Position numbers and translations under genes: made by a program | Notes under the pieces: model-generated | Seen by the model: the letters and a program-made list of their open reading frames with translations, nothing else | Databases searched by the model: none | Told to the model about the DNA's origin: nothing | Virus record (IMG/VR): IMGVR_UViG_3300022602_000026 | Reading direction: 5' to 3' (one strand) | Length of the DNA stretch: 64,000 nucleotides | From: a virus | Taxonomy: Duplodnaviria > Caudoviricetes | Shown: positions 3,710 through 33,026 of the stretch, piece after piece | How the letters are laid out: the number at the start of each line of letters is the position of its first letter | Numbering within the stretch: the first letter of the stretch is position 1

Positions 3710-4095
3710 AACAGATACGCATAACTTCTGAACACTTTGTGCCCCGGGGCGAACAAGGTTATCCCGACGCCGGCATGGATCCTGCAGATTTGCGTAGACT
3801 AAAGCAACTGGCCGGAGTTCCTGTTAACGAGGACTATTATCAAGCCGGTGGGCACGATCCTGCAATAGATACTCCCAACAATAACGATCAAGCAATGCCA
3901 AGTGTATTAGGCGGCATTGGCAATAAGAACGTCACTGACAAACGCAAAATAGAAAAAGAAAAAGGCATCAAGCCTGGTAGTGATGAATGGTTTAAACTTT
4001 GGTTTGCAAAGCCATTATTAACCGGAGAAAAGCCGGTGGGTGATGCACCGGCTCCGCGTATAGATCGAATGACTAAAAAACCCTCTAGCGACTAG
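3706..4095 (+). CDS. Hypothetical protein
   Basis: 129 aa, ATGA-coupled, LKQLAGV motif. Confidence 0.7.
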   Translation: MKQIRITSEHFVPRGEQGYPDAGMDPADLRRLKQLAGVPVNEDYYQAGGHDPAIDTPNNNDQAMPSVLGGIGNKNVTDKRKIEKEKGIKPGSDEWFKLWFAKPLLTGEKPVGDAPAPRIDRMTKKPSSD

Positions 4096-4621
4096 CTACT
4101 TTTTTGTCAGTACCCAAGTATTGATTCCATGACTCTTGCCGTACTGTAAATGGCATTTCTTTCCACTTTTTAACTAAAGCATAGTAGTCGGGCTTGTAGG
4201 GCCTAATACGAGGCAGGATGTTGGTCTTACTGCCCTTATTAAAGTTACAGGTCTTGCAAGCAGTCACACAGTTAGTCCAATTGGTCTTACCACCACTAAC
4301 ACGTGGTAAAACGTGATCAATAGTTAAATCTTCAAAATCAAACACATCATTACAGTACTGGCATTGAAACAGGTCACGCAGGTACATGTTGTAACGACTA
4401 AATCTAACTCCTTTCTTGAAATGAAAGTAATCTTTGGTAACACATACGCTGGGAACATTGATGGTCAAATGCTCAGAACGGATTAACCAATCTGGGTAAG
4501 TTTCCAGTACATTAACTCTGCCCAAAAACATAAGTTTAATGGCATGTTGCCAGTTGATTACACTCAGAGGCAGGATTGAAATTGGTTCGTAGTTGCTGTT
4601 GAGCAACAAAGTATCACTCAT
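4085..4621 (-). CDS. HNH endonuclease (McrA-like)
   Basis: RDLFQCQYC...LTIDHVLPRVSGGKTNWTNCVTACKTCN; GAGG RBS. Confidence 0.9.
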   Translation of the reverse strand: MSDTLLLNSNYEPISILPLSVINWQHAIKLMFLGRVNVLETYPDWLIRSEHLTINVPSVCVTKDYFHFKKGVRFSRYNMYLRDLFQCQYCNDVFDFEDLTIDHVLPRVSGGKTNWTNCVTACKTCNFNKGSKTNILPRIRPYKPDYYALVKKWKEMPFTVRQESWNQYLGTDKKVASR

Positions 4622-19890: not shown

Positions 19891-20030
19891 AAAAGTGTTA
19901 AGGAAACGAGGTCCTAGCATCACTTTAAAAATGCAAACGGGCGGACAGGATACATGAATGGCATGGCGACAACTTGCCGAGTAAGACTCCTGGGTAGGGT
20001 ATCAACCCTATCATATCCTCTACCAAGAGG
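19891..20030 (+). ncRNA. Possible structured RNA
   Basis: Hairpins aaagtg/cacttt, cagga/tcctg, taggg/cccta, atatcctct/agagggtat; no ORF. Confidence 0.4.
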
Positions 20031-20125
20031 GTATTCTAAAACACACCAGATGACAATTCCTGGGGGCAATGAGAGCCCACTAAGGCAGGCACGGATCCCG
20101 TGATAACTGGTGTGTTTTAGAATAC
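20031..20125 (+). ncRNA. Stem-closed structured RNA (AAAACACA family)
   Basis: Perfect 19-bp IR gtattctaaaacacaccag/ctggtgtgttttagaatac with inner hairpins. Confidence 0.65.
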
Positions 20126-20219
20126 AACACCCAGACGAAAGAAGCCGATAGATTGATAAACTATGACGGGGCAGTTCGCAAGATAAGTGTTCCAACTGTG
20201 GTGTTGTGTTACTTACAAT

Positions 20220-20310
20220 GGAAGGCCAATCCAAATGGCGATGGAACCGGTCTTGAAAACCGTCGAGCGTTAATAACGCCTTTAGAGTTCGACTCTCTAG
20301 CCTTCCGCCA
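20220..20310 (+). tRNA. tRNA-Ser(TGA)
   Basis: Cloverleaf, loop CTTGAAA, long variable arm, CCA. Confidence 0.9.
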
Positions 20311-20331
20311 AAATCTCACCGCTTCCGCCAA

Positions 20332-20601
20332 TGTTGTATTTGTGCAACACCGCAGTTGTTCAGAAATGACAACTCAGTTATAATAGATACAAGTTAAGCA
20401 ATTAACTGAAGTTAAGCAATTAACAAGTGTTGTATAACAACAACATCAAATTTGCAAAGAAATGATGTCTAAGTTATAATAGATACATGTTAAGAAATTA
20501 ACTAAGTTTAATTGATTAGCAAGTGTGTAGTGTAAATGCAACATCAAATTTGCAAAGAAATGATAAAGCAGTTACAATACATATATGTTAAGAAATTAAC
20601 A
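20332..20601 (+). promoter_or_regulatory. Three tandem operator-promoter units
   Basis: TGTTG(or TGTAG)-N8-CAACA, 6 nt, -35 TTGTTC/TTGCAA, 17 nt, TATAAT/TACAAT, then GTTAAGMAATTAAC; units start 20332, 20428, 20526. Confidence 0.8.
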
Positions 20602-20677
20602 GTAACAAATGATTGAGTTAGTTACAGAGTTCATTAAAAAATTATTTAGGTAGTGCTAGTTTTGCTTGGCAACAAGC

Positions 20678-20938
20678 ACTACTTTAAAACACATTTGAGG
20701 TTACCTACACCGTTAGGTTCTCTAGGAGAGGAGCAAGGGTGCCGACTCACGCAATCCTAGGGCAACATGAAACAGAGCAGTAATGCTTGGCGATAGCGGC
20801 GGACAGGTAGGCAGTAATGACGAACTGAAGTCTGTGCAGACGGTGCACCGGGATGTTATCGAGCGTAAACCCTTATTAGGTAACGAACGGGTTGTGAGAC
20901 GACAGAGGGGAGTTCCTCAAGTGTTTTTTAAAGTAGTT
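20678..20938 (+). ncRNA. ~260-nt structured RNA, unclassified
   Basis: 23-bp closing stem (one mismatch, one G-U), GUAA-capped hairpin, several internal complementary blocks, no ORF. Confidence 0.7.
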
Positions 20939-21008
20939 GAAACTCTAGATTAAATCCACTGGTAATAAAGAGAGAAGTGAGTGGTACTCTCCAACTACTA
21001 ACAATTTT

Positions 21009-21086
21009 GGTCTCATAGTATAGTTGGCCTAATATGCCTGCCTGTCACGCAGGAGATCACGGGTTCGAATCCCGTTGAGACCGCCA
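21009..21086 (+). tRNA. tRNA-Asp(GTC)
   Basis: Cloverleaf, loop CTGTCAC, CCA. Confidence 0.95.
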
Positions 21087-21156
21087 AAGTTTTCTGGCAT
21101 TTTAACAAGGCGAGCCGTCAATGCAGAGTCTAGTTAAATGTAAGTCCAATCTAATT

Positions 21157-21232
21157 GCATCGTTCTTCTAGAGGCCAAGGAAAACCGCCTTTCACGCGGT
21201 CAACACCGGTTCGAATCCGGTACGATGTACCA
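21157..21232 (+). tRNA. tRNA-Glu(TTC)
   Basis: Cloverleaf, loop CTTTCAC, CCA. Confidence 0.9.
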
Positions 21233-21238
21233 AAATTT

Positions 21239-21327
21239 GGGGGCTAATCCACACGGGAGACTGTAAATCTCTTGCCATAATATGTGTGGTGGCTGGCAGT
21301 TAGGTTCGATTCCTTTAGTCCCCACCA
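21239..21327 (+). tRNA. Atypical tRNA-Tyr(GTA)-like RNA lacking a D-arm
   Basis: Acceptor GGGGGCT/AGTCCCC + ACCA, loop CTGTAAA, T-loop TTCGATT, only 10 nt in D-arm position. Confidence 0.65.
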
Positions 21328-21338
21328 TTTGTAGTTGT

Positions 21339-21492
21339 TATTGATAAGTGTTTGAGATGAACATGGGGTATCGTGGACTGATCATCCGCTATGCGGGCCT
21401 AACTGGCGTGGAACAGGTCCTGACATAACCCGCCATACGCTGTTGCCGGAAACGATCCGACGCATAAATTGGCACTCAAGCACTTTTCAATA
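21339..21492 (+). ncRNA. Stem-closed structured RNA abutting tRNA-Arg
   Basis: 18-bp closing stem, inner tatgcg/cgcata and tggcg/cgcca helices. Confidence 0.6.
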
Positions 21493-21567
21493 GTCGCTAT
21501 AGTATAATGGATAATACGCCGTGCTACGAACGCGGTGATTGTGGTTCGATTCCATATAGCGGCACCA
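21493..21567 (+). tRNA. tRNA-Arg(ACG)
   Basis: Loop CTACGAA, CCA. Confidence 0.95.
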
Positions 21568-21573
21568 AACAAT

Positions 21574-21648
21574 GGAGTTGTTAGTTTAGTGGTAAAACCG
21601 CGGGTTGTGATTCCGCTATCACGAGTTCGATTCTCGTACTTCTCCCCA
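21574..21648 (+). tRNA. tRNA-His(GTG)
   Basis: Loop TTGTGAT, G-1, CCA. Confidence 0.9.
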
Positions 21649-21662
21649 GTGTAAAAGTTTTT

Positions 21663-21738
21663 GGGGGTATAGCTCATTTGGTAGAGCAGGACCTTTGCAA
21701 GGTCAAGGCGGCGGGTTCGAATCCTGTTACCTCCACCA
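21663..21738 (+). tRNA. tRNA-Ala(TGC)
   Basis: G3:U70, loop TTTGCAA. Confidence 0.95.
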
Positions 21739-21744
21739 GAATAC

Positions 21745-21836
21745 GGAGACTTGGATGAGTGGTTTAAATCGGCACCCTGCTAAGGTGTTGTATATAGTAA
21801 TATGTACCGAGAGTTCGAATCTCTCAGTCTCCGCCA
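21745..21836 (+). tRNA. tRNA-Ser(GCT)
   Basis: Loop CTGCTAA, long variable arm. Confidence 0.95.
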
Positions 21837-21839
21837 AAT

Positions 21840-21868
21840 TTGACAGTAAATGATGTTACTGTTACAAT
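21840..21868 (+). promoter_or_regulatory. Sigma70 promoter
   Basis: TTGACA-17-TACAAT. Confidence 0.8.
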
Positions 21869-21879
21869 AAGAAATCAGT

Positions 21880-21953
21880 TGGGGATTAGTTAAATGGTAT
21901 AACAGTGGATTTTGATTCCATCGTCGAAAGTTCGATTCTTTCATCCCCTGCCA
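21880..21953 (+). tRNA. tRNA-Gln(TTG)
   Basis: Loop TTTTGAT, CCA. Confidence 0.9.
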
Positions 21954-22100
21954 AAGTTTGTTAGTTATTAAAAAGGAAGTTAACATGAAAGACACTGCTA
22001 AACACTAGTGTCAATCTTGATCCCGTATTGGTCAGGGTTGGCACATTAAAGAACTCTTTAATATAGTATTAAGACATTAAAGAAACTTTTAATACACCAA

Positions 22101-22176
22101 CCCTCTGTGGCGCAATTGGTAGCGCAACGGACTCTTAATCCGCTGGTTGGCAGTTCAAATCTGCCCGGGGGGACCA
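22101..22176 (+). tRNA. tRNA-Lys(CTT)
   Basis: Loop CTCTTAA, CCA. Confidence 0.9.
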
Positions 22177-22179
22177 TAT

Positions 22180-22255
22180 GGGACGTTAGCTCAGTAGGTA
22201 GAGCAAGAAACTTTTAATTTCGAGGTCATGTGTTCGAATCACATACGTCCTACCA
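22180..22255 (+). tRNA. tRNA-Lys(TTT)
   Basis: Loop CTTTTAA, CCA. Confidence 0.95.
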
Positions 22256-22867
22256 TATAAAAACACATTAAGTAAGTCCCGGGCAAGATTCGTTTAATAG
22301 GCATTAGTGTGTTTCTATATGGTAAGTAATGATACAAGAGGGAGTAATTACCCTTCAAGTATGACCTAGAAGCGAGTGGACGAACGTGACTGTGGGCCAC
22401 TAAGGTAGTCAACATTACAATCCATATAAAAACACATTCTTGTGGGTAAGTGACTTGGTTAACGCCGATATCGACCGCCCGTTTGTAGTGTGTTTCTATA
22501 TGGTAAGGGCAAGGTGTGCTGTTGGTATCTGGCTTAGACCTCCGGACTGTCACTAGAATCATTACCGCTCTACTGCTTGGTCGGCAGTACCATATAAAAA
22601 CACATTAGAGTAGCGACTATTGCTGGAGGCGGTAACACGTAATTAGTGTGTTTTTATATGGTATATCAGTTTTTAGTAAGTCATACACGGGACTGCTACC
22701 TACGGGATAGATATCGAGGCTCGGAATCTCGGATACTAATTACAGACTCAATGACGGATGCATACGGCATTGTTGATACGCCATATAAAAACACATTATC
22801 TAACCTGTAGTGCGGTCACAGGACATCGTAAGGTGTGGTAGCCGTGTTAGTGTGTTTCTATATGGTA
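22251..22867 (+). repeat. Array of four conserved inverted-repeat stems with variable loops and variable CCA-ended spacers
   Basis: CCATATAAAAACACATT at 22253, 22422, 22590, 22781; AGTGTGTTTYTATATGG at 22306, 22487, 22645, 22849. Confidence 0.95.
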
Positions 22868-22939
22868 ATATAGCATAGTGGCTAATGCAGTTGCTTCATA
22901 CGCAACCTATCGTTGGTTCGAGTCCAACTATTACCACCA
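22864..22939 (+). tRNA. tRNA(CAT), Met or Ile2
   Basis: Acceptor GGTAATA/TATTACC, loop TTCATAC. Confidence 0.85.
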
Positions 22940-22941
22940 AG

Positions 22942-23048
22942 TTTCGGGATAGACGGCGCGATTGAGTCCCTTGACGGTCTTAGTGCTACAGGCTGTAGCA
23001 TGACACACCAGTAGACCATAAGGTAGCATAAACTCTTGCGTTCGAGAC
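22942..23048 (+). ncRNA. Possible long irregular hairpin RNA
   Basis: Nested pairs gcgcga/ttgcgt, gagt/actc, ggtct/agacc, tgctaca/tgtagca. Confidence 0.45.
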
Positions 23049-23053
23049 AAAGA

Positions 23054-23239
23054 CTAATCTTCTACACCGGGAAGTGGCGGTGTAGTCCTCTCTAGATCAG
23101 TTTCCCGAAAATCTTTATGTTGCGGGGGTTGTGCGTCTGGCACAAACTCCGCTGGAAGACACGTAAACATCTTTTGTTTATAAGGTCGATTTGAGTGTAC
23201 TTTGTACAACATTTGAAATTCTGTGTAGATGTCTTCCAT
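23054..23239 (-). CDS. 61-aa antisense late micro-protein
   Basis: TATAAATA (23244-51, minus strand) 4 nt before ATG; MEDIYTEFQMLYKV... Confidence 0.5.
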   Translation of the reverse strand: MEDIYTEFQMLYKVHSNRPYKQKMFTCLPAEFVPDAQPPQHKDFRETDLERTTPPLPGVED

Positions 23240-23251
23240 ACAGTATTTATA

Positions 23252-23328
23252 GCCCCGATAGCTCAGTTGGTAGTAGCACCGTCTTGATAAGGCGTAGGTC
23301 CCTGGTTCGAGTCCAGGTCGAGGCACCA
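23252..23328 (+). tRNA. tRNA-Ile(GAT)
   Basis: Loop TTGATAA, CCA. Confidence 0.95.
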
Positions 23329-23342
23329 AATTAAAAATTTAT

Positions 23343-23425
23343 TCCACGGGAGCCGCCGGGTGTGGCAGCGGACTGTTAATCCGTGTCGAAAGACTAGCTA
23401 GGTTCGAGCCCTAGCCGTGGAGCCA
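23343..23425 (+). tRNA. tRNA-Asn(GTT), long variable arm
   Basis: Loop CTGTTAA, GTC-GAAA-GAC arm. Confidence 0.9.
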
Positions 23426-23440
23426 ATCATAAATAACTAT

Positions 23441-24046
23441 ATGTATAATTGTATAGTTTGTGAAAAATCTTTTGTCAGCATTATGTCCTTAACCGGTCAT
23501 AAAAGAATGCACGGTCAATCTAATGGCAAATCTAAAAAGATATTGTGTTCGTGTTTAATTACACGTAAGGTAATGCCGCATCAATATTTAGAAAAATATC
23601 AAGACAGTTTAATGGGTTGTAAGCAATGTAAAAAATTGTTTAAACCAACTGCACAAAGAACTACTTTTTGCTCTCAATCTTGTTCGGCAACATATAACAA
23701 TACAGTTTACATAAAACGTAAGAAAAAAGAAAAACTGCCAAAGATTATTAGAGAGAAAAAAGTTTACTCAGAAGCCGAGAAAAAGGCTGCAAATGTTTCA
23801 GCAGTACAAGCCTACAGAGCTCGAAAATATAGTGCGACACTACCAGATACAAATCGCAAACTTATTAATGAGATTTACAAAATGTGCCCAAAAGGTTATG
23901 AAGTAGATCATATTATTGCGTTAAGCGAAGGTGGTCCGCACCATCAAGACAATTTACAGTATCTTCCTGCTATAGAAAATAGACGGAAGAACCGAACACA
24001 AAATTACGACAAAAGTCTTGCTATCAAATGGCAAGATGTGTTATAA
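23441..24046 (+). CDS. HNH endonuclease with Zn-finger-like N-terminus
   Basis: CxxC pairs; YEVDHIIALSEGGPHHQDNLQYL; start reset from 23417 to 23441. Confidence 0.85.
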   Translation: MYNCIVCEKSFVSIMSLTGHKRMHGQSNGKSKKILCSCLITRKVMPHQYLEKYQDSLMGCKQCKKLFKPTAQRTTFCSQSCSATYNNTVYIKRKKKEKLPKIIREKKVYSEAEKKAANVSAVQAYRARKYSATLPDTNRKLINEIYKMCPKGYEVDHIIALSEGGPHHQDNLQYLPAIENRRKNRTQNYDKSLAIKWQDVL

Positions 24047-24142
24047 TAAAAACAAATACAAGTCAGTTCCCGGATGACTCGAAAAATGCGGGCTGCTCAA
24101 TCGCCAACGGAGCGAGCGTAAGGTAACAGTTGGACAAATTTC

Positions 24143-24227
24143 GCCCCTTTGCGCCGAATGGGATGGCAACGGATTTGTAATCCGTCTTCGTAAGATAGAG
24201 AGTGTTCGATTCACTCAGGGGGCACCA
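24143..24227 (+). tRNA. tRNA-Thr(TGT), long variable region
   Basis: G1-C72/C2-G71, loop TTTGTAA, 14-nt variable region. Confidence 0.85.
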
Positions 24228-24234
24228 AACAACA

Positions 24235-24483
24235 ATGTGGACATACTTAGAAACTTTTTTATTAGTATTTGCAACCGACATACTTTATATCTATTATGTT
24301 AAAGCCGTAACAGATCATAAAATATGGCGTGCAACCTTTTGGAGTATGGTAGTTACATTTACTGCTAGTATAGCAGTGATCAACTACACCGAGAACCATT
24401 GGACACTGATATCAAGTTTACTGGGTGCCGGAGCCGGCACTTATATAGGTATGCGATTCATTAAAAAGAATAACGGAGTATAG
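24235..24483 (+). CDS. Small three-helix membrane protein
   Basis: 82 aa, hydrophobic, GAGAGTYIG; stop lies inside tRNA-Pro. Confidence 0.7.
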   Translation: MWTYLETFLLVFATDILYIYYVKAVTDHKIWRATFWSMVVTFTASIAVINYTENHWTLISSLLGAGAGTYIGMRFIKKNNGV

Positions 24484-24551
24484 CGCAGTCTGGCTAGCGC
24501 ATCTGCTTTGGGAGCAGAGGGTCCAAGGTTCGAATCCTTGTACTCCGACCA
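24474..24551 (+). tRNA. tRNA-Pro(TGG)
   Basis: Loop TTTGGGA, CCA. Confidence 0.95.
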
Positions 24552-24563
24552 ATTAAATATAGT

Positions 24564-25634
24564 ATGAAAAGAATAGTTTGGCCATTAAAGATTTATGGTG
24601 ACAAAGATTTATCGGGCAAAATTTGCACGATCCCTTTTAATACTGTAGCAATATCAATTGAAGGTGATGTTCGTATATGTATGTGTACTGATTGGATGCT
24701 ATCCACAGTTGGCAACATTTATGAAAATTCCTTACAAGATATTTTAGTTAATGCAAGATCCACAACAATAAGACAATCTATTGTTGATGGTAATTTTAGA
24801 TACTGTGACGAAACCAGATGCGGAGTATTGCTTAATTCAGACACAGGATTAATTACAGTAACGCAAGAAGATCAATTATTAAAAAATTTACTTGATCCTG
24901 CAAATTTTACAATACCATCTGAGATATGGATAAGTGGTGACATGACCTGTAACCTTTCTTGTCCATCTTGTAGAAAAAGCATAATTCGAGAAACAGAAGC
25001 ACAACAACGACAAAATCAAGAGCTATTAGATAATTTAGTTCAACATATTTTTCCTGGCTCCAGCGATAAAGAAATTACCTTGTACATGAGCGCAACTGCT
25101 GAAGTATTTGCTAGTTCACTGTTACTGGGTTTGTTGGAAAAATTGCCCATTGATCGATACCCTAACATTAGATTAAGTCTACAAACAAACGGGTTATTGG
25201 CCGAACGTAGATGGTCTAGGATCCAACATTTAGAAAAGAATATACATCGTATCACAGTTACCATAGATAGTTGTACCAAACAAAACTATGAACTATTGAG
25301 ACGAGGTGGTAAATTTGAAGATATGGAAAGTAGCTTAGAGTTTTTTTCAAAGAAAAAACGCGAGCTAGGGTTTCAGTATTATATTAGATCAGTAACGCAA
25401 CAAACAAATTGCAACGAGATCGAACAATTTTATGATTATTGCAAACAACACGACGCTGATCGAGTTGAATACTGTAAGTTGGCCAATTGGGGAACTTTCA
25501 CCGAGCAAGAATTTTTAGCACACGATGTGCTTGATAACGCACACCAACAGTACCAATCAACAATTGATACTTTTAATCGACTCAAAGAAAAATACAACGA
25601 TGTATTTTTTATAGGCTTCGCAAGTATGGCGTAA
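24564..25634 (+). CDS. Radical SAM protein with N-terminal SPASM-like domain
   Basis: TCNLSCPSC, LQTNG, ITVTIDS; stop lies inside tRNA-Leu. Confidence 0.9.
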   Translation: MKRIVWPLKIYGDKDLSGKICTIPFNTVAISIEGDVRICMCTDWMLSTVGNIYENSLQDILVNARSTTIRQSIVDGNFRYCDETRCGVLLNSDTGLITVTQEDQLLKNLLDPANFTIPSEIWISGDMTCNLSCPSCRKSIIRETEAQQRQNQELLDNLVQHIFPGSSDKEITLYMSATAEVFASSLLLGLLEKLPIDRYPNIRLSLQTNGLLAERRWSRIQHLEKNIHRITVTIDSCTKQNYELLRRGGKFEDMESSLEFFSKKKRELGFQYYIRSVTQQTNCNEIEQFYDYCKQHDADRVEYCKLANWGTFTEQEFLAHDVLDNAHQQYQSTIDTFNRLKEKYNDVFFIGFASMA

Positions 25635-25705
25635 TCGGTAGCCGCAGCAGACTTAAAATCTGCCGAGTTTGACTCGTCCCGGTTCGATTCCGGGTACTTG
25701 CACCA
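25620..25705 (+). tRNA. tRNA-Leu(TAA)
   Basis: Loop CTTAAAA, long variable arm. Confidence 0.95.
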
Positions 25706-25707
25706 AC

Positions 25708-25784
25708 ACCACTGTAGTCTAACTGAATAAGGCACCGCTCTTCTAAAGCGTACGATGTGAGTTTGAATCTCGCCAGTGGTACCA
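25708..25784 (+). tRNA. tRNA-Arg(TCT)
   Basis: Loop CTTCTAA, CCA. Confidence 0.9.
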
Positions 25785-25826
25785 TTTATCATAAATACTT
25801 CTATGTAAAGACTAGGAGTAGAAGTA

Positions 25827-26528
25827 ATGGATTATAAGAAAATATACGAAAATTTAATAGATCGTGCTAGAGATCGATGTTTAATAGATGGTGAATATTA
25901 TGAATCGCACCACATTGTTCCTAGATGTTTAGGTGGTAATGATAGTATTGATAATTTAGTAAATCTAACAGCTAGAGAACATTTTATAGCACATTTATGC
26001 CTAGTTAAGAATAATCCGGGTAATCATAAACTTGTGAAAGCGGCCGTTATGATGACTGTTAGTGGCACAGTTCATAATAGAATAGGGAATAGAGTTTATG
26101 AATGGTTAAGAAAAAAGCATTCAGTTGCAATGAGTATTTCACAATCCGGAAAAGGTAATAGCCAATTTGGATCTGTCTGGGTATTTAACGATATCTTAAA
26201 AGAAAATAAAAAAGTTAAAAAATCTGAATTATCTACGTTTATTGCCGCCGGGTGGCATGAAGGAAGAGTTTATGATTTTGATAGCGTATATCAAAATTGT
26301 GCAGTTTGTGGAAAAGACTTCAGAAACCATTTTAAGAAAAAGACTTGCAGTTACACATGTCAAGAAATCTTAAAAGGCAAATTTAAAAGTTTTGAAGGCA
26401 AAGAAGAAGAATTAAAAATGCATTATGCAAATACTAAGAGTATGAATAAAGCATTAAAGGCAATGGGATATCCTGGAGCAGTTAGCCATTATTATCAATG
26501 GGCTAAACGTATCCTAAAGCAAACATAA
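25827..26528 (+). CDS. HNH homing endonuclease
   Basis: YYESHHIVPRCLGGNDSIDNLVNLTAREHFIAHLCL. Confidence 0.9.
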   Translation: MDYKKIYENLIDRARDRCLIDGEYYESHHIVPRCLGGNDSIDNLVNLTAREHFIAHLCLVKNNPGNHKLVKAAVMMTVSGTVHNRIGNRVYEWLRKKHSVAMSISQSGKGNSQFGSVWVFNDILKENKKVKKSELSTFIAAGWHEGRVYDFDSVYQNCAVCGKDFRNHFKKKTCSYTCQEILKGKFKSFEGKEEELKMHYANTKSMNKALKAMGYPGAVSHYYQWAKRILKQT

Positions 26529-26531
26529 TTT

Positions 26532-26606
26532 GCGACTATAGCATAGCGGTAGTGCCGCGAACTCATAATTCGTACGGGGGTGGTTCGAATCCACCTGGTC
26601 GCACCA
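26532..26606 (+). tRNA. tRNA(CAT), elongator Met or Ile2
   Basis: Loop CTCATAA, CCA. Confidence 0.9.
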
Positions 26607-26611
26607 AATTT

Positions 26612-26687
26612 GCAACTTTAGCTGATGTGGTCATAGCGGTGGCGTGAAGAGCCATTGAACTAGGTTCGATTCCTAGAGGTTGCACCA
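26612..26687 (+). tRNA. tRNA-Phe(GAA)
   Basis: Loop GTGAAGA (unusual G32). Confidence 0.9.
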
Positions 26688-26691
26688 AATC

Positions 26692-26769
26692 GCCCCCGTG
26701 GACAAATTGGCAAAGTCATTTCTCTCAAAAGGAAAAGTTTTCTCCGTTCGACTCGGAGCGGGGGTACCA
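26692..26769 (+). tRNA. tRNA-Leu(CAA), short variable region
   Basis: Loop CTCAAAA, 6-nt variable region. Confidence 0.85.
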
Positions 26770-26771
26770 AG

Positions 26772-26845
26772 GCTCTTGTAGTTAAGTGGCATAACACAGT
26801 CTTGGTAAGACTGAATAGAAAGTTCGATTCTTTCCTAGAGCACCA
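26772..26845 (+). tRNA. tRNA-Thr(GGT)
   Basis: Loop TTGGTAA. Confidence 0.9.
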
Positions 26846-26846
26846 G

Positions 26847-26875
26847 TTGACAAATAAATAGAATGATAGTATAAT
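26847..26875 (+). promoter_or_regulatory. Consensus sigma70 promoter with nested TAAATA
   Basis: TTGACA-17-TATAAT. Confidence 0.85.
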
Positions 26876-26885
26876 AGATACTAAT

Positions 26886-26959
26886 GCGGGATTAGTTTAA
26901 TGGTAAAACAGAACCTTGCCAAGGTTCGGACAGGAGTTCGATTCTCCTATCCCGCTCCA
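26886..26959 (+). tRNA. tRNA-Gly(GCC)
   Basis: Loop TTGCCAA. Confidence 0.95.
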
Positions 26960-26966
26960 AGAGTTC

Positions 26967-27040
26967 GCCTCGGTAGTTTAATGGTAGAACGGCATCCTTA
27001 CACGGTGCATACGGGAGTTCGATTCTCCAACGAGGTACCA
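26967..27040 (+). tRNA. tRNA-Val(TAC)
   Basis: Loop CTTACAC. Confidence 0.9.
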
Positions 27041-27048
27041 AGAAAGAT

Positions 27049-27122
27049 GGGTCATTAGTATAATGGTAGTACAAGAGTCTCCAAAACTTTTAGCGGTGGT
27101 TCGATTCCATCATGACTCGCCA
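27049..27122 (+). tRNA. tRNA-Trp(CCA)
   Basis: Loop CTCCAAA. Confidence 0.9.
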
Positions 27123-27128
27123 AACAAT

Positions 27129-27206
27129 GTAAGGGTGGCAGAGTGGCCCAATGCAACGGATTGCAAATCCGTAAAACCGTCGGTTCAAATCCGACCCCTT
27201 ACTCCA
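27129..27206 (+). tRNA. tRNA-Cys(GCA)
   Basis: Loop TTGCAAA, U73. Confidence 0.95.
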
Positions 27207-27213
27207 ACAATTT

Positions 27214-27945
27214 ATGCACAATAGATCATTTAGACCCGAACAAGAAAAAAAATTGCGGGAAAATATTGGTCCCAGCGGAGTTGTAGAAAACTTTTTAACC
27301 CATGATGAATTCGAGTTGTGTAGAAAACTACATGCCGAAAACATAGACAAAATAAAAATGGGATTTGTGTTTAGGCAAGCAGCATTTGATTGGGAGTCCG
27401 AATACGGGGCCATGTTTAAATGGATACAGCCCAAGATTGATGCAATAGTTCCTGCTGAATGGGAATTGGATTTTATTGCTTTGCAGGATACTCCGGATCC
27501 TTGGAGGATACATATTGATCTTGCCTGGAACGCAGACAAGTTGCCGTATAAGGTATTGCTAGTTCCAGTAGATGTACTACCTGAATCAGGACCAGTAGAT
27601 CCCGTCAATTGGCCTGCGGTTTACACAATAATTTTTAATCAAAGAAACTTTTTATCAAATTGCAAGCCGTTGCCTCCGGGGGCTAGTTGGATACGATCCA
27701 TTGATGATCCCAGTGTTGAAAATCTTGAAACAGGGTTTTGTATAACTAGAGAATTTTGGCAACAGTATCTAACACATGTCGACTATGAAGCTTTAGAAGG
27801 ATTAACAGTAGAAACTTTGCTTCCTTGGAAACCAAAGTCTGTATTGTATTGGGATACTTCGGTATTGCACATAGCAGACAATTTTGTCAAGAATAAAGTT
27901 AAAACAAAGAAGTCAGTGATATTTTTTATACGACATAAACTATGA
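27214..27945 (+). CDS. Putative 2OG-Fe(II) oxygenase-fold protein
   Basis: WRIHID (HxD) plus distal LHIAD. Confidence 0.5.
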   Translation: MHNRSFRPEQEKKLRENIGPSGVVENFLTHDEFELCRKLHAENIDKIKMGFVFRQAAFDWESEYGAMFKWIQPKIDAIVPAEWELDFIALQDTPDPWRIHIDLAWNADKLPYKVLLVPVDVLPESGPVDPVNWPAVYTIIFNQRNFLSNCKPLPPGASWIRSIDDPSVENLETGFCITREFWQQYLTHVDYEALEGLTVETLLPWKPKSVLYWDTSVLHIADNFVKNKVKTKKSVIFFIRHKL

Positions 27946-28135
27946 GCATAATTAAAGATGCGAGAAAACTGCAATAGCCGGCGGCCCAACTGCTAGGGAA
28001 CCATTTGTGTCCCGGAGGCCATGTACCCGTTGGCAACAACGCTGGCGTACCTGTTGGCTACAGGATGAACACACTCCGGGAAGGGGACGACGATGTTGAA
28101 CCCCTTTAAACGTACAGCAGTATCTTTAATTATGC
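27946..28135 (+). ncRNA. Stem-closed structured RNA abutting tRNA-Arg
   Basis: Perfect 14-bp closing IR gcataattaaagat/atctttaattatgc; tcccggag/ctccggga; cgttg-GCAA-caacg; cctgt/acagg; agggg/cccct. Confidence 0.7.
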
Positions 28136-28212
28136 GGGTCCGTAGCTCAGCAGGATAGAGTACTGGTCTTCGAAACCAGCTGTCGGCGGTTCGAACCCGT
28201 CCGGACTCACCA
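28136..28212 (+). tRNA. tRNA-Arg(TCG)
   Basis: Loop CTTCGAA. Confidence 0.95.
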
Positions 28213-28232
28213 ATTACCAGATAAGTAACTTA

Positions 28233-28988
28233 ATGTTATCAATCATTATTGCAACCTTTAACGCACCTGACTTATTGAAGTTGGCCATTGACTCGGTGTT
28301 GCGACAAACTAGTCCCAATTGGGAAATCGTTGTCAGTCCCGATGACGGGCAAGACTATTCTCGTCTCAGGGACTTGGATAAAAGAATTCAAGTGGTTGAA
28401 TCCAATGCCATTGCTACAGGACCTGGGGCCGCTAGGAATAGAGCATTGGAGTATGTGAGGGGCACCGCAGTGGCCAGTCTGGATGACGATGACGAGTTGT
28501 CAATGACCTACGTAGAGGATGCGTTGACGGCCTTGGCCTCAACCCCTGTTGTAGTGTTTCCCACTCGTTATTCCGACATTCGTGTTATTGCACAACACCT
28601 AGACAGTATCAACATAGAACAATTTAGCCAACTGCTTGGCAGTTTGCATGTGGTAGCACGTAGAGAATGTTTTCCGCCTTGGCCCAATTGTTTTGCTGAA
28701 GATGTGATTCACACCTGCAAAGTAATTGAACAACAAGGCGGTAGTATTCCGGTCATTAACACCGCTGAATATATTTTAAATGTGCGTGATGCCAGTATGT
28801 GTGCAACTTATAAAAACATAGATGCCGAATACGCCGACATTATTTGCAACACTACTAGTACTGCAATGGCCAATCTATTTAGATACAGACAACACATTAA
28901 TCGTCTTTATCAAGGTAGCAGTTTAAATTATCATGCGTTTGTTGAACAGTTGACAACAAATGAAATAAACAGTATAATACATTTTTAG
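28233..28988 (+). CDS. Glycosyltransferase family 2
   Basis: MLSIIIATFN, GPGAARNRAL, LDDDD. Confidence 0.9.
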   Translation: MLSIIIATFNAPDLLKLAIDSVLRQTSPNWEIVVSPDDGQDYSRLRDLDKRIQVVESNAIATGPGAARNRALEYVRGTAVASLDDDDELSMTYVEDALTALASTPVVVFPTRYSDIRVIAQHLDSINIEQFSQLLGSLHVVARRECFPPWPNCFAEDVIHTCKVIEQQGGSIPVINTAEYILNVRDASMCATYKNIDAEYADIICNTTSTAMANLFRYRQHINRLYQGSSLNYHAFVEQLTTNEINSIIHF

Positions 28989-28994
28989 GAGGCA

Positions 28995-29585
28995 ATGATG
29001 CCAGCAACATTTTTGGTAAGTGACACACATTTTGGACATAGCGGTGTATGTCGTTTTACTCGTAATGACGGCATAACAAAATTGCGTCCATGGGACAATG
29101 CAGATGAGATGGATGAAGCTATGGTCCGGGCTTGGAACGAACGTGTCCGTCCCACAGACAAAGTTTACCATCTTGGGGATGTTGTGATTAATCGTAAAGC
29201 ACTCGCGATCATGCACAGACTTAACGGCGACAAGGTTTTGATTCGTGGTAATCACGATATCTTTAAAGACACCGACTACCGTGAACACTTTAGAGAACTT
29301 AGAGCCTATCACGTTATGAACGGCATGATCCTTAGTCACATACCGCTCCATCCTGAAAGTTTGGGCCGCTTTGGTACGAACATACACGGACATTTGCATG
29401 CCAATCGTGTTATGATAACAAAGCATAAAGGTGCTGCTCCTGAAGTTGATGTACGCTACCATTGTGTATGTGTGGAACAAACTCCGGACTTTGCACCTAT
29501 CTTGTTTGAAGACGTTAAAAAGCGTATCATAGAAGAAGGTGGCAGCATTGACTTTAAAAATAACGGCAATGGCCCTGCGATGTAA
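28995..29585 (+). CDS. Calcineurin-like metallophosphoesterase
   Basis: SDTHFGH, HLGDV, RGNHD, HGHLH. Confidence 0.92.
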   Translation: MMPATFLVSDTHFGHSGVCRFTRNDGITKLRPWDNADEMDEAMVRAWNERVRPTDKVYHLGDVVINRKALAIMHRLNGDKVLIRGNHDIFKDTDYREHFRELRAYHVMNGMILSHIPLHPESLGRFGTNIHGHLHANRVMITKHKGAAPEVDVRYHCVCVEQTPDFAPILFEDVKKRIIEEGGSIDFKNNGNGPAM

Positions 29586-29595
29586 ATAGTATAGT

Positions 29596-29679
29596 GCCCC
29601 GGTGGTGTAATGGTAGCCACGCTAGTCTTAGGAACTAGTGCCGCAATGCGTGTCGGTTCGAGTCCGACCTGGGGCACCA
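29596..29679 (+). tRNA. tRNA-Leu(TAG)
   Basis: Loop CTTAGGA, long variable arm. Confidence 0.95.
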
Positions 29680-29689
29680 AATAAAATAA

Positions 29690-31555
29690 ATGAAAAATAT
29701 ATACTTAATACAACCCAATGAGATGCAGGAGTTCCAAGGTAAAAAAATATTTTGGTTGCCCTACACCTCGGGGGTGTTGTGGGCCTATGCACTACAGTTT
29801 CCCGAAGTAAGCAATAATTATTGTTTACAGGATTTGATGTTCCATAGAGAAAAAATCAGTTCGGTGGTTGATCGCGTATTGCCCAATTCTATTTTTGCAT
29901 TCAGTTGTTATATATGGAATTGGGAATACAATAAAAAATTAGCACAAGCAATCAAAGAACGATATCCCGACTCGTATATTGTTTTCGGTGGGCCGCAGGT
30001 GAGTGACCGTCCATTGGAAACTGACTTTTTTAAAAAACACAAATACGTTGATACTATTGTACTAGGCGAAGGTGAAGAATCATTTACACGACTATTGATA
30101 GACTATGTTGATGGTAAAAAAACAAAGATATACAATAGTAAACGTTTAGAAAATGTCAACACTCCCAGTCCATACCAAGTTGGTGTATTTGATAAAATAA
30201 TTGCCGACAATCCCGAGTTCCACTGGAATGGAGTACTAGAAACAAATAGAGGATGTCCGTTTGCTTGTACCTTCTGTGACTGGGGAGGACTAACATACAG
30301 CAAAGTTAAACAACTGCCTATTGATCGTGTTGATCACGATATTGAATGGTTTGGTATAAATCAAATCGAATACATAGCTGTAGCCGATGCAAACTTTGGA
30401 ATTTTCAAAGATCGAGATTTAAAGATTGCTAAAAAGATCACAGACGTTAGATTAAAGTATGGATATCCGGCAAATTTAAATATCAACTTTAATAAAAATC
30501 AAACCTCGGACATAGTAAACATAGTAAAGGTACTTGCCGAAAGCGGACTTAACCGCGGATTAACTATTAGTTTTCAAAGTCTTGATGACGATGTACTAGA
30601 AGCTATCAAGCGCAAGAACATGGCCATTAGCAAAAGCGAAGAAATATTTCGACTGCTCGAAGAGTCCAATCTAACTCACTATTCGGAAGTTATTTGTCCT
30701 TTGCCTTTAGAAACATACGATACTTGGCGAGCCGGTTTAATCAAATTAATAACTGCCGGACAACATCAATGTATTGATGCTTTCTTTACTGCTGTATTAG
30801 AAAACAGTGAAATGAATCAACCCGAATATAGACGCAAATACGATATTAAGTCTATAGAACGAGAATACATATTCTTCTTTCACTTTGGCGCCGAAGACGT
30901 ATTAACCGAAGAAGCCACAGAAAAAATAAACTTAATTGTCTCGACCAGTACAATGAGTCTTGATGATCATATACGCAGTTGGATGTATACTTGGCTTATT
31001 ACAAATTTCCACATATATGGTTGGACACAGATCTATGCTAGATTTTTAAATGCACACAACATCAAGTATGATGTGTTCTACGATTGTCTCTTAGATGAAA
31101 TTGCAAATCAACGCATGGGATTTTTAAGCGAACAATATCTAGAAGTAAAACGCATGATAACATTGTTACTAACCGAAGGTAGTAACTTAAAGGATGTGGG
31201 ACTCAGTCCTGATGTAATTAGATTTAGTCAACGATATTTCCATCGTAATCGAAAATTGGTTGAGCAGTTGTTGGCCGACTATGTCAAAACTCAATTTGAT
31301 CCAGAGAACTTTGTTAATCTACATCGGTACCAAATCAATTTTGTATCTCACATGGATCAAGGCGAATCAAGACACGAGGTACTGGACCTGGGAATAAAGG
31401 ACACAATAACAAAAGGTGTGCCCTACCAAGAAAACCTAAAGGAATGCACAGTAGCACCAGTGGGAACTTATTCCAGCCAAGAAGAATTTTTAGCTAAAAC
31501 AATCATGCATAGAAGAAATGGTTTTGGCAAAAATCTAATACTTGACAAAGAATAA
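29690..31555 (+). CDS. Cobalamin-binding radical SAM protein
   Basis: FSCYIWN, VFGGPQ, GEGEE, ETNRGCPFACTFCDWG. Confidence 0.92.
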   Translation: MKNIYLIQPNEMQEFQGKKIFWLPYTSGVLWAYALQFPEVSNNYCLQDLMFHREKISSVVDRVLPNSIFAFSCYIWNWEYNKKLAQAIKERYPDSYIVFGGPQVSDRPLETDFFKKHKYVDTIVLGEGEESFTRLLIDYVDGKKTKIYNSKRLENVNTPSPYQVGVFDKIIADNPEFHWNGVLETNRGCPFACTFCDWGGLTYSKVKQLPIDRVDHDIEWFGINQIEYIAVADANFGIFKDRDLKIAKKITDVRLKYGYPANLNINFNKNQTSDIVNIVKVLAESGLNRGLTISFQSLDDDVLEAIKRKNMAISKSEEIFRLLEESNLTHYSEVICPLPLETYDTWRAGLIKLITAGQHQCIDAFFTAVLENSEMNQPEYRRKYDIKSIEREYIFFFHFGAEDVLTEEATEKINLIVSTSTMSLDDHIRSWMYTWLITNFHIYGWTQIYARFLNAHNIKYDVFYDCLLDEIANQRMGFLSEQYLEVKRMITLLLTEGSNLKDVGLSPDVIRFSQRYFHRNRKLVEQLLADYVKTQFDPENFVNLHRYQINFVSHMDQGESRHEVLDLGIKDTITKGVPYQENLKECTVAPVGTYSSQEEFLAKTIMHRRNGFGKNLILDKE

Positions 31556-31570
31556 CAAAGAGTATATAAT
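31542..31570 (+). promoter_or_regulatory. Consensus sigma70 promoter
   Basis: TTGACA-17-TATAAT. Confidence 0.85.
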
Positions 31571-31576
31571 AGCTAT

Positions 31577-31651
31577 TGCAGGGTGGAGAAGTGGCAACTC
31601 ACCGGGCTCATAACCCGGAGATCACAGGTTCGAATCCTGTCCCTGCTACCA
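31577..31651 (+). tRNA. Initiator tRNA-fMet(CAT)
   Basis: 1:72 mismatch, GGG/CCC anticodon stem, loop CTCATAA. Confidence 0.92.
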
Positions 31652-31662
31652 AATATAAAATT

Positions 31663-32718
31663 ATGAAACATAGAGTAGAACGTGGTATAGGAGTTTACAT
31701 TACACATACCTGTAATTTAAACTGCACTGACTGCAATACGTTTAATAATTTTTCTTTTTCAGGACATCAACGTTGGAGTGATTACCAAGCTCTATATACC
31801 GAATGGTCCAAGCGAATAGACACTTATACATTTTTTATAATTGGCGGCGAGCCAATGACCAATCCTGATTTTTTATCTTGGGTACATGGTATTGCTGGAC
31901 TATGGCCCGACTCTGAAATAAAAATAACAACCAACGGCACACAATTTAAACGTTGGCCCACACTGTATCAGGAATTGTTGCCGTATCGTGGACGAGTTAG
32001 ATTGTTTATCAGTGTACACAACGAAGACTCGATACAACACTATGTTGATATAGCACGAGAATTTTTACAAGGCGACATATCCGAATACACCGATCGTGCA
32101 TTTGACGAGTTTCATTGGCAACGCAGTTACAATCGCATTAGAGGCAGTGATTGGCCCGATTGTAACAGTATAGAAGAATACCAAAATCTTCCCGAGCACA
32201 TCAAACAAGAATGTGAACAAGTACATAACATAAAGATACAGGATTTTGTAGAACAAGCCGAAATTACTCCAGGCAGTCGAATTTTCATTGACTCTAATCA
32301 TGTTAGGCTATCGTTTTCGTTAAACGACAAGTTTGCCAGTTCGTCCGTTAGACTTGACAACAATCAATTATCGTTATACAATAGTGATCCCAACAAAGCA
32401 ATTTCGGCATGTTATTTAAAAGCCTGTCATCGTTTTTATAAAGGAAAATTATACAAGTGTCCGGTAGTACCAGTATTGCCGGACTTTGCGGAACAGTTTT
32501 CTTTACCGCTCAGTGACAGTGATCAAAAACTAATTAACTCTTACCGTGCCGGAGAAGCCGATTGGGACGACGTTCAATTAGCAGAATTGATCGATAACTT
32601 TGAAAAAGAAACAGTAATTGACCAATGCAAATTTTGTCCCGAACAGTTGAAAACAGTTACAATAAAATCGTCGGCTAAAAAGATCAAGATTCACAATACA
32701 ACACCAAGGAGACTTTAA
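31663..32718 (+). CDS. Radical SAM protein with inserted WPDC module
   Basis: HTCNLNCTDC, IGGEP, TTNG, GKLYKCP; start reset past the tRNA. Confidence 0.9.
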   Translation: MKHRVERGIGVYITHTCNLNCTDCNTFNNFSFSGHQRWSDYQALYTEWSKRIDTYTFFIIGGEPMTNPDFLSWVHGIAGLWPDSEIKITTNGTQFKRWPTLYQELLPYRGRVRLFISVHNEDSIQHYVDIAREFLQGDISEYTDRAFDEFHWQRSYNRIRGSDWPDCNSIEEYQNLPEHIKQECEQVHNIKIQDFVEQAEITPGSRIFIDSNHVRLSFSLNDKFASSSVRLDNNQLSLYNSDPNKAISACYLKACHRFYKGKLYKCPVVPVLPDFAEQFSLPLSDSDQKLINSYRAGEADWDDVQLAELIDNFEKETVIDQCKFCPEQLKTVTIKSSAKKIKIHNTTPRRL

Positions 32719-32942
32719 TGTCATATACAAGTAGAGGCACTTTTATCGATACCGAAAAATGTGTAGAAGCCGTAGGCGGAAACAGATTTAATTTAATCGT
32801 AATTGCCAGTATGCGAGCACGAGAAATTGCACAACAAAATCGTCACAGTCATCACCACGCACATTGGCATACTCCGGTTACTGCACTACTTGAAGTACAA
32901 AATGGTGAGTTAAATTACACCGACTTAAAACGTCTTAGATAA
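32718..32942 (+). CDS. rpoZ: RNA polymerase omega subunit homolog
   Basis: GNRFNLIVIASMRAREI...PVTALLEVQNG matches RpoZ pattern. Confidence 0.8.
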   Translation: MSYTSRGTFIDTEKCVEAVGGNRFNLIVIASMRAREIAQQNRHSHHHAHWHTPVTALLEVQNGELNYTDLKRLR

Positions 32943-32952
32943 GTAAAAATAT

Positions 32953-33026
32953 GCGAGGTTCGTATAGTGGTAATACCTTAGCCTTCCAAGCTAATGCTGA
33001 GAGTTCGATTCTCTTACCTCGCTCCA
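32953..33026 (+). tRNA. tRNA-Gly(TCC)
   Basis: Loop CTTCCAA. Confidence 0.95.

Follow-up and report, generated by a model that had tools for sequence, protein, structure and literature searches.

Phage tRNA islands are increasingly viewed as counter-defence loci, and they also house enigmatic large RNAs such as GOLLD. The locus described here raises the question of what occupies the interval between two tRNA genes of such an island when the interval is filled by an array of inverted repeats, and what the array may produce. It lies in a stretch of 64,000 nt from the IMG/VR virus record IMGVR_UViG_3300022602_000026 (Caudoviricetes), referred to at its full length as the window, in which ARAGORN detected 29 + strand tRNA genes within 20220-33026. 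Four inverted-repeat hairpins, spanning 22253-22865 and alternating with three non-tRNA modules (M1 to M3), were found between tRNA-Lys(UUU) and tRNA(CAU). Hairpins of this kind form a family of viral elements in which a helix of 17-21 bp (P1) closes a variable interior, called the cargo, that is usually 29-90 nt and at most ~240 nt long. We consider it probable that one transcript holds the hairpins along with the tRNAs and that the tRNA machinery excises them, yielding a stable small RNA that carries its cargo on a common helix.

Anatomy of the array

The four hairpins are built from a left arm, CCATATAAAAACACATT, and a right arm, AGTGTGTTTYTATATGG, which are near-identical among the units and pair over 17-20 bp, or over 20-21 bp if the flanking TA is included. 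A 15-nt core of the arm occurs nine times in the window against 0.59 expected, a number that none of 100 shuffles reached. Hairpin 1 (22253..22322, on the + strand, as are all elements of the array) opens within tRNA-Lys(UUU) (22180..22255, called by ARAGORN and Rfam), the encoded CCA of which (22253-22255) provides the first three bases of the left arm (22253-22269); a 36-nt cargo (22270-22305) and the right arm (22306-22322) follow. Hairpin 2 (22422..22503) comprises a left arm at 22422-22438, a 48-nt cargo at 22439-22486 and a right arm at 22487-22503. The arms of hairpin 3 (22590..22661), which is the sole unit lacking an A.C mismatch, lie at 22590-22606 and 22645-22661 around a 38-nt cargo (22607-22644), and those of hairpin 4 (22781..22865) at 22781-22797 and 22849-22865 around a 51-nt cargo (22798-22848) consisting of two sub-hairpins, one with a GNRA-type loop. 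The final two bases of hairpin 4 are G1G2 of tRNA(CAU) (22864..22939, again called by both programs). M1 (22321..22424, 104 nt), M2 (22502..22592, 91 nt) and M3 (22660..22783, 124 nt) occupy the spaces between successive hairpins. A first-pass annotation, made by a model from the sequence alone, had described four units with these loop lengths and with arms pairing over at least 17 bp, three intervening segments that are not cloverleafs, stems that join a CCA end to the GG start of the next element, and six occurrences of GTAAG. All of these features were reproduced, and the six GTAAG copies, on the + strand of the array, compare with ~0.5 expected from the window-wide density.

Every junction of the array is covered by short contigs of four independent lake or pond metagenomes, and alternative forms with a single hairpin and another cargo are present among these contigs. 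The recurrence of each junction in independent samples indicates that the array is not an assembly artefact and that the number of units is not fixed. A search for variable unit number across phages, which the annotation had proposed, showed that the slot between tRNA-Lys and tRNA(CAU) holds 1 to 4 units, differing between phages. Since the arms are near-palindromic, the right arm of one unit can also pair with the left arm of the next around each module. In the minimum-free-energy fold of the complete array, distant arms pair in long-range nesting, and the register is therefore not fixed by energy alone; this fold is uninformative on the register in vivo. Two open reading frames (ORFs) over the array, 22239-22562 on the - strand and 22646-22810 on the + strand, were judged spurious because they cross arms and cargos whose lengths in relatives differ by non-multiples of three.

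A family of hairpins in viral tRNA arrays

Viral contigs of IMG/VR were scanned for the exact arm pair with a gap of 30-60 nt. At least 120 contigs carried it, so that uniqueness to a single assembly, a possibility raised in the annotation, does not apply, and all of the loci found are tRNA arrays (2,178 tRNAs in 121 sequences, with a mean of 18 per locus). Related loci are labelled with L numbers. A relaxed scan for the loop-proximal core (AAACACATT and AGTGTGTTT, with at most two mismatches each) together with basal pairing gave 286 elements with 110 distinct arm pairs. The conserved loop-proximal sequence of P1 is AAACACAUU paired with AGUGUGUUU, and includes a characteristic U.G.

One genome per species from 185,579 bacterial and archaeal species gave only two matches to the arm pair. 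One was a 1.5-kb contig of nine tRNAs, binned in a Candidatus Planktophila metagenome-assembled genome and representing a binned phage fragment, and the other was a chance match in a Clostridium promoter region; the cellular scan therefore points to no host. BLAST of the array region against 50,697 phage records returned matches to tRNA-Lys only. For practical purposes, the hairpin family is confined to freshwater viruses. The terminase of the window is nearest (53%) to those of PA5oct-like jumbo phages, in the T4-type terminase group.

Hairpins are placed exactly between a CCA and a G

Of the 286 elements, 143 start within a tRNA-encoded CCA, and 63 of them reach into the opening bases of a tRNA at their other end. 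Most often (87 elements) the gene upstream is tRNA-Lys(UUU), so that 87/111 (78%) of such genes in the related loci have a hairpin directly behind them; Gln(UUG) (18), Glu(UUC) (11) and Leu(UAG) (8) come next. On the downstream side, tRNA(CAU) is the most frequent neighbour (31 elements). An empty and a filled version of an orthologous site could be compared. In L008, a spacer of 6 nt separates the CCA of tRNA-Lys from the GG of tRNA-His, whereas in L022 a family hairpin stands between this CCA and GG, taking the place of the entire spacer with no duplication.

Family hairpins within permuted tmRNA genes and after GOLLD

The transcript of a permuted transfer-messenger RNA (tmRNA) gene is cut by tRNA-processing enzymes into two pieces, and the intervening sequence is missing from the mature two-piece bacterial tmRNA (PMC11915505). 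Twelve related loci were searched with Rfam, and ARAGORN was used to detect additional permuted tmRNAs. Among the best 150 of 249 Rfam matches only tRNA, tmRNA and GOLLD were found, with permuted two-piece tmRNA genes in three of the twelve loci and GOLLD RNA in three. The permuted two-piece tmRNA genes lie at L004:13913-14302, L018:812-1112, L105:10483-10783, L041:6931-7338, L083:11753-12256 and L100:8323-8716; the tag peptides of these phage tmRNAs end in ALAA, and all of the intervening segments are helix-closed, with that of L083 being ~190 nt long. In L004, L018, L105 and L041 a family hairpin, whose core reads AAACACAUU/AGUGUGUUU or is a compensated form of this pair, sits between the acceptor piece (...CCACCA) and the coding piece (GGG...). 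The helices that close the intervening segments of two other phage tmRNAs are unrelated. By location, the members in L004, L018, L105 and L041 are tmRNA intervening segments and the four window copies are not; the window array would function like such a segment but is not one. A family hairpin would thus, by definition, be excised in at least one setting, the permuted tmRNA.

Like the tmRNA intervening segments represented in Rfam (RF04321, RF01849, RF01850), which are removed by tRNA-processing enzymes, the window hairpins stand between an encoded CCA and the 5' G of the next piece. They differ in linking unrelated RNAs (tRNAs and modules) rather than the halves of one RNA, and in occurring in tandem. 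To our knowledge, conserved and exchangeable cargos are not a described property of tmRNA intervening segments.

GOLLD RNA (Rfam RF02032, 202-212 bits) was located at L001:503-965 (-), L105:8501-8962 (-) and L018:2633-3098 (+), in the same tRNA arrays as family hairpins, and in each of these loci a family hairpin comes directly after the GOLLD 3' end. The GOLLD of L001 has a tRNA nested inside it, and no GOLLD match was found in the window itself. The tmRNA and GOLLD placements together identify the family as a general CCA-to-G linker of the stable-RNA operons of these phages. The proposal in the first-pass annotation that the window stems are a processing scaffold in tRNA slots draws its strongest support from here, in that the hairpin is itself the intervening segment that is excised from tmRNA.

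P1 is paired in an RNA of tRNA sense

The annotation had deduced a + strand RNA from the constant wobble and the mismatch of the window stems. That argument does not hold, since U.G and A.C on the + strand become A.C and G.U on the - strand, and four units alone imply no strand; the strand call itself is borne out by the orientation and the wobble statistics of the family as a whole. Of all elements, 260/286 (91%) share the polarity of the tRNAs. At core positions 11-14 of the stem G.U was seen 46 times, as against five instances of A.C or C.A, and position 16 is U.G in 63% of pairs and otherwise C-G or U-A. Basal positions swap AU, UA, GC and CG among distinct arm pairs, position 8 is mismatch-tolerant, and compensatory double changes were detected in 17/29 and 7/29 predicted pairs in two alignments. 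The compensatory changes and the excess of G.U over A.C show that pairing takes place in a tRNA-sense RNA. Cargos that fold better as + than as - strand RNA outnumber those that do the reverse (58 vs 22).

No terminator-like site was found on the + strand within 22100-23300, and promoter-like sites are present upstream of the array. In contigs of two metatranscriptome libraries a right arm, M2, a left arm, a different cargo, a right arm and tRNA(CAU) follow one another in one stretch, an arrangement compatible with a polycistronic precursor. Upstream of tRNA-Lys(UUU), and joined to it by the short palindromic junction CCA-TAT-GG, lies tRNA-Lys(CUU) (22101..22176, + strand, called by ARAGORN and Rfam). 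Just 5' of this gene, two copies of a 21-nt palindromic word of the ACATTAAAGAACTCTTTAATA type are found at 22043-22094, overlapping a promoter-like site; they may represent an operator.

Inverted repeats with TA on both sides could also be the ends of selfish mobile DNA, namely a miniature inverted-repeat transposable element (MITE) with terminal inverted repeats and TA target duplication in the style of IS630/mariner, colonising tRNA junctions of the CCATATGG type. Among the short junctions between tRNAs of related arrays, CCATATGG is the most frequent, which would make it a common empty site, and 175 pairs of elements have the same cargo in different flanks. In addition, identical 34-nt arms adjoin tRNA-Lys genes that are only 72% identical on average; that figure is inflated by the exact-arm search, yet it points either to sequence-specific constraint or to spread. 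Mobility at the level of DNA does not, however, account for 91% co-orientation with the tRNAs in an element with almost symmetric ends, nor for arms that compensate and tolerate G.U but not A.C, which reflects selection on RNA pairing. The interiors are mutually non-homologous, with 194 copies bearing near-canonical arms falling into 103 unrelated loop clusters, and the filled site in L022 replaces the whole spacer with no duplication. Since the CCA and GG of the arms belong to the flanking tRNAs, a simple TA-duplicating insertion would leave truncated tRNAs. Pfam and PHROGs searches of ~50 ORFs of the window and of the ten commonest neighbour families revealed no transposase, integrase, Cas protein or Ro60, and no RNase III, RNA ligase or CCA-adding enzyme. 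An IS630/mariner MITE was rejected on the grounds of the spacer replacement and of the tRNA CCA and GG within the otherwise terminal-repeat-like arms, and we regard an origin of the family as selfish DNA as very improbable.

Cargos are conserved, diverse and exchanged

The same cargo recurs on diverged, compensated stems. The cargo of hairpin 4 is near-invariant, loops included, in 10 contigs, in which the stems differ at seven pairs with compensation; its sole varying part is the GNRA-type loop, which reads GUAA, GAAA or AUAA or is extended into a stem. A second cargo family is defined by a CAUAGU-loop hairpin, conserved unpaired motifs and covarying helices. The cargo of hairpin 1 also precedes M1 in L126, whereas the hairpin 2 cargo has a homologue in another context in L110, and its interior is found with other flanks in a metatranscriptome contig. 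Cargos, of which there are more than 100 types of 29-240 nt, are better conserved than the stems, show covariation of their own and are swapped between contexts. The first-pass annotation had treated the hairpins as mere scaffold and the modules as the library of released RNAs. Across the family it is the hairpin that is the conserved unit, with the loop as its diverse and exchangeable cargo, and the modules cannot be regarded as the sole library.

The main alternative is that the hairpins are punctuation alone, with a helix that would only signal processing or insulation, in the manner of the RNase III sites between T7 early genes or of rRNA processing stalks, and a functionless cargo that drifts as filler and is replaced by recombination. 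A P1 of about two helical turns in which a mid-helix mismatch is tolerated would suit this role, as would the use of the family hairpin as a discarded tmRNA intervening segment and the closure of other such segments by unrelated helices; cargos are, moreover, extremely diverse and on average hardly more structured than shuffles. Filler would not be expected to remain near-invariant, loops too, in 10 contigs while the stem around it changes at seven pairs, as does the hairpin 4 cargo, or to keep its helices by compensation along with unpaired motifs, as does the CAUAGU-loop family. It would also be expected to shrink, yet cargos remain 29-90 nt in length, and most tRNA junctions do without a hairpin. 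On balance we think it unlikely that the hairpins are punctuation alone.

Exchange was observed in both directions. In 28 element pairs both 70-nt flanks are at least 90% identical and the cargos are unrelated, and the 175 pairs mentioned above represent the reverse situation. The genomes concerned are 75-90% identical overall, and the exchange has therefore occurred over evolutionary time. These pairs, and the presence of 1 to 4 units in one slot, are also what would be seen if the arms were recombination sites, attC-like or provided by short homologies, that shuffle tRNA and small-RNA genes as DNA cassettes. attC sites, like MITEs, have imperfect inverted repeats with a variable centre that separate cassettes, and place the same unit in different contexts. 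However, homologous recombination in the conserved flanking tRNAs explains the exchange as easily, and readily, so that no dedicated mechanism is required. Only a few of the 20-30 tRNAs per array have flanking hairpins, no integrase was detected near the elements (window ORFs and common neighbour families), and the wobble statistics favour pairing of RNA over pairing of DNA. An integron cassette array was rejected, as the arms also lack the attC core (RYYYAAC/GTTRRRY). Selection on RNA pairing in one orientation, no target duplication and neither an integrase nor a transposase set the family apart from attC sites and MITEs alike. The orientation bias, the wobble statistics and these two absences disfavour both DNA-level readings, and we judge a DNA cassette system to be extremely unlikely.

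Roles as decoys, antitoxins or guides, which the annotation had put forward, were considered in the light of the cargo sequences. A T-arm-like hairpin is present in 14/195 cargos (~7%), compared to 2.5 (~1%) in shuffles; the cargos that contain one share sense-strand 13-14-mers with tRNAs, and a few cargos resemble a D arm, a mini-hairpin and a T arm atop a long stem. The released RNAs might then imitate tRNAs or serve as decoys that engage anticodon nucleases, synthetases or further defence proteins binding tRNA, or else act as guides or antitoxins. The preferred position of the hairpins after tRNA-Lys(UUU), Gln(UUG) and Glu(UUC) would agree with this, as these tRNAs carry xm5s2U34 in model bacteria and include known anticodon-nuclease targets, and the diversity and turnover of the cargos resemble those of counter-defence loci. 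Nevertheless, a tRNA-like feature is absent from more than 90% of cargos, the four of the window among them, and no anticodon-loop mimicry was seen. Antisense complementarity of the cargos to 1,695 phage tRNAs was at chance level, and a search of the cargos against all loci with the hairpins masked gave no protospacer-like targets, only further hairpins with diverged arms. Direct repeats such as those of type III antitoxin RNAs are absent from the cargos, no effector gene was identified, and the preference for certain tRNA neighbours may be inherited synteny. Such roles thus appear improbable for the family. The annotation was right in setting aside a CRISPR array, since successive arms alternate in orientation and no cas domain was found among the window ORFs.

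The modules are conserved RNAs

Neither ARAGORN nor Rfam, the latter at gathering score and also at E<=10, called M1-M3 or the hairpins as tRNAs; a tRNA identity was rejected in the absence of any cloverleaf, and the modules are not recognised by covariance models as the degenerate tRNAs that the annotation had envisaged as an alternative. M1, which is closed by GUAAUG/CAUUAC, is present in eight contigs, with homologues in L047, L093, L020, L110, L043, L125 and L126. Its closing helix covaries, being ACAAUG/CAUUGU in L043, and its variable inserted hairpin has a AGUAAUUA loop, with the palindromic UAAUUA kept. A homologue of M2 is found in L093 at 84% identity, and M2 is flanked by arms in contigs of two metatranscriptome runs. 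M3 has 99% identical copies in L073 and L077, likewise between family hairpins. In L110, L125 and L126, M1 is followed by other sequence with no left arm, indicating that the modules do not depend on the arms. M1-M3 are conserved RNAs in their own right. They had been described as CCA-ended, and their sequences do end in CCA; this does not amount to a free tRNA-like NCCA tail, because the terminal CC can pair with the module's own 5' GG.

A further conserved module of 134-154 nt was observed between family hairpins at L073:5971-6104, L072:172-306, L013:377-509, L002:6493-6643 and L120:1684-1837. It consists of two 5' hairpins with palindromic loops (UAAUUA and UCAUGA) followed by a tRNA-like part with a D-like arm, a T-like arm, an extended acceptor helix and a GCCA end. 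The AGUAAUUA-loop hairpin is common to this module and to M1 of the window.

A proposed route of release

We infer from the arrangement that the array would be transcribed together with the tRNAs, each hairpin folding during synthesis and filling the exact space from an encoded 3' CCA, whether of a tRNA, a tmRNA acceptor piece, GOLLD or a non-tRNA module, to the 5' G of the next RNA. A cut by RNase P at the 5' G of the downstream RNA would set the 3' end of the hairpin. An endonuclease would act next, either of the RNase E type in the AU-rich base of the stem or of the RNase III type in the two-turn helix, and exonucleolytic trimming back to the CCA would set the 5' side. This would be the route along which permuted tmRNAs lose their intervening segment as well. 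Its product would be a blunt, exonuclease-resistant hairpin RNA of ~65-100 nt, which would be expected to be stable and to show its cargo on a common handle, where the cargo might act in trans; M1-M3 would be freed from the same precursor as separate conserved small RNAs.

Several observations weigh against this route. The conservation of the canonical arms is in part an ascertainment effect of the exact search pattern, and the evidence from RNA libraries consists of contigs, in which DNA carry-over is possible. Cargos folded alone are barely more stable than shuffles (mean z of -0.47), and a general claim that all loops are strongly structured is therefore unsupported. Many neighbouring tRNAs in these arrays lie only 3-9 nt apart with no hairpin between them, so that a hairpin is not needed for tRNA processing in general. 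Nothing obviously involved in RNA processing, neither a nuclease nor a stem-binding protein, was found among the ~50 scanned ORFs of the window, whose products include HNH endonucleases, radical-SAM enzymes and glycosyltransferases; nor does any one protein family occur near all of the elements.

Excision by the tRNA machinery was also compared with known systems. Ribosomal RNA processing stalks and the RNase III hairpins of T7 early genes are long helices that enclose or separate RNAs in a polycistronic precursor, and the T7 sites share sequence and contain internal mismatches. With ~20 bp (20-21 with the flanking UA), one U.G and a central mismatch, P1 is similar and has the two turns of double-stranded RNA expected of an RNase III site; it is unlike these stalks in that it abuts tRNA ends to the nucleotide and encloses a small RNA that is hypervariable between genomes. 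Judging from the length of the helix, P1 is a candidate for RNase III cleavage. T4 species 1 and 2 (rnaC, rnaD) and RNAs of the T5 tRNA island are non-decoding RNAs that are both co-transcribed and co-processed with phage tRNAs. A search of the phage collection gave no sequence relationship of the family to either group. We know of no case in which these RNAs are built on a common closing helix with swappable tops or serve as tmRNA intervening segments.

The tRNA-miRNA-encoded RNAs (TMERs) of murine gammaherpesvirus 68 (MHV68) consist of a viral tRNA-like element followed by precursor microRNA hairpins, which are freed by tRNase Z. In both systems processing of a tRNA end would free hairpin RNAs placed directly after a tRNA-type structure; TMERs, however, are eukaryotic, transcribed by RNA polymerase III and dependent on Dicer, whereas the phage hairpins belong to a bacterial setting, follow an encoded CCA and presumably receive their downstream cut from RNase P. 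YrlA Y RNAs, which are bound by Rsr/Ro60, have a long terminal stem with a variable, sometimes tRNA-like, apical module, and a minority of family cargos have comparable T-arm and D-arm features. Identity with Y RNA or YrlA was rejected, as there was no Rfam match, no TROVE domain among the window ORFs and an unrelated stem sequence. Known self-cleaving ribozymes and riboswitches were rejected as well, since, apart from tRNA, Rfam returned only microRNA-model noise (E of 0.3-5, over hairpin 3) for the window array.

Further elements of the window

Two more members of the family were found in the window, both on the + strand. A diverged solo member at 20031..20125 has a perfect 19-bp stem with a AAAACACA/UGUGUUUU core and a cargo of 57-61 nt, and 91-94% identical copies of it are present in L055 and L042. 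The other, at 20679..20936, has a large cargo: a stem with a AAAACACAUU/AGUGUUUUUU core closes a multibranch RNA of 214-224 nt, which is homologous to cargos in L055, L040 and L109 and shares motifs such as GGCAGUAAUGACGAA with them. This cargo had no Rfam match, a permissive search over 19900-21500 giving only tRNA and microRNA or plastid noise, and members with cargos of 180-240 nt, including this one, constitute a separate family that is likewise unmatched in Rfam.

Other structured segments were noted in the tRNA array. At 27946-28135, 162 nt are closed by a perfect 14-bp stem, unrelated in sequence, that runs exactly up to the start of tRNA-Arg(UCG), which points to helix-closed RNAs next to tRNAs as a recurring feature of the window tRNA array. 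The 312-nt gap between tRNA(CAU) and tRNA-Ile (22940-23251) probably represents a further non-coding RNA; it folds to -96 kcal/mol and is conserved in L055 and L042, with more distant conservation in five additional loci. A tRNA-like element at 21239-21327, after tRNA-Glu, gave a weak match to the tRNA-Sec model (22.5 bits) and was not called by ARAGORN. Among the protein-coding genes there are four ORFs for HNH endonucleases (23417-24046, 25827-26528, 4085-4621 and 46861-47475), two of them within the tRNA array, several interspersed radical-SAM/SPASM enzymes, and a metallophosphoesterase (28995-29585) with homologues in 30/121 related loci.

Implications for phage stable-RNA operons

Stable RNAs other than tRNAs in phage tRNA clusters, tmRNA intervening segments that are excised, and RNase III stalks have all been described before. 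The element itself is not described in Rfam 15 or in the literature searched, which included the arm sequences as text. New with respect to these sources are a single conserved helix common to hundreds of elements, its nucleotide-exact placement from CCA to G, its use as a tmRNA intervening segment and beside GOLLD, and more than 100 conserved and exchangeable cargos.

A more speculative extension, to which we give little weight at present, is that freshwater jumbo-type phages carry an "RNA cassette display", in which a helical handle, excised from tRNA operons by processing enzymes of the host, presents more than 100 horizontally exchanged, structured RNA domains acting in trans. The domains could then act on host or phage factors, for example as aptamers or counter-defence decoys, although this too is a doubtful prospect, and the handle would be near-constant because a dedicated protein or nuclease reads its sequence. 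If true, such a display would be an RNA-level analogue of integrons or of anti-defence gene islands.

The standard handle could serve as a natural design for the expression of arbitrary small RNAs from bacterial tRNA operons, and the family supplies more than 100 candidate small structured RNAs, some of them near-invariant across divergent phages. For the phages themselves, the finding adds an abundant element located at the seams of their tRNA islands and brings tRNAs, the two-piece tmRNA and GOLLD into one precursor architecture, with a processing logic by which whatever stands between a CCA and a G would be released by the tRNA machinery.

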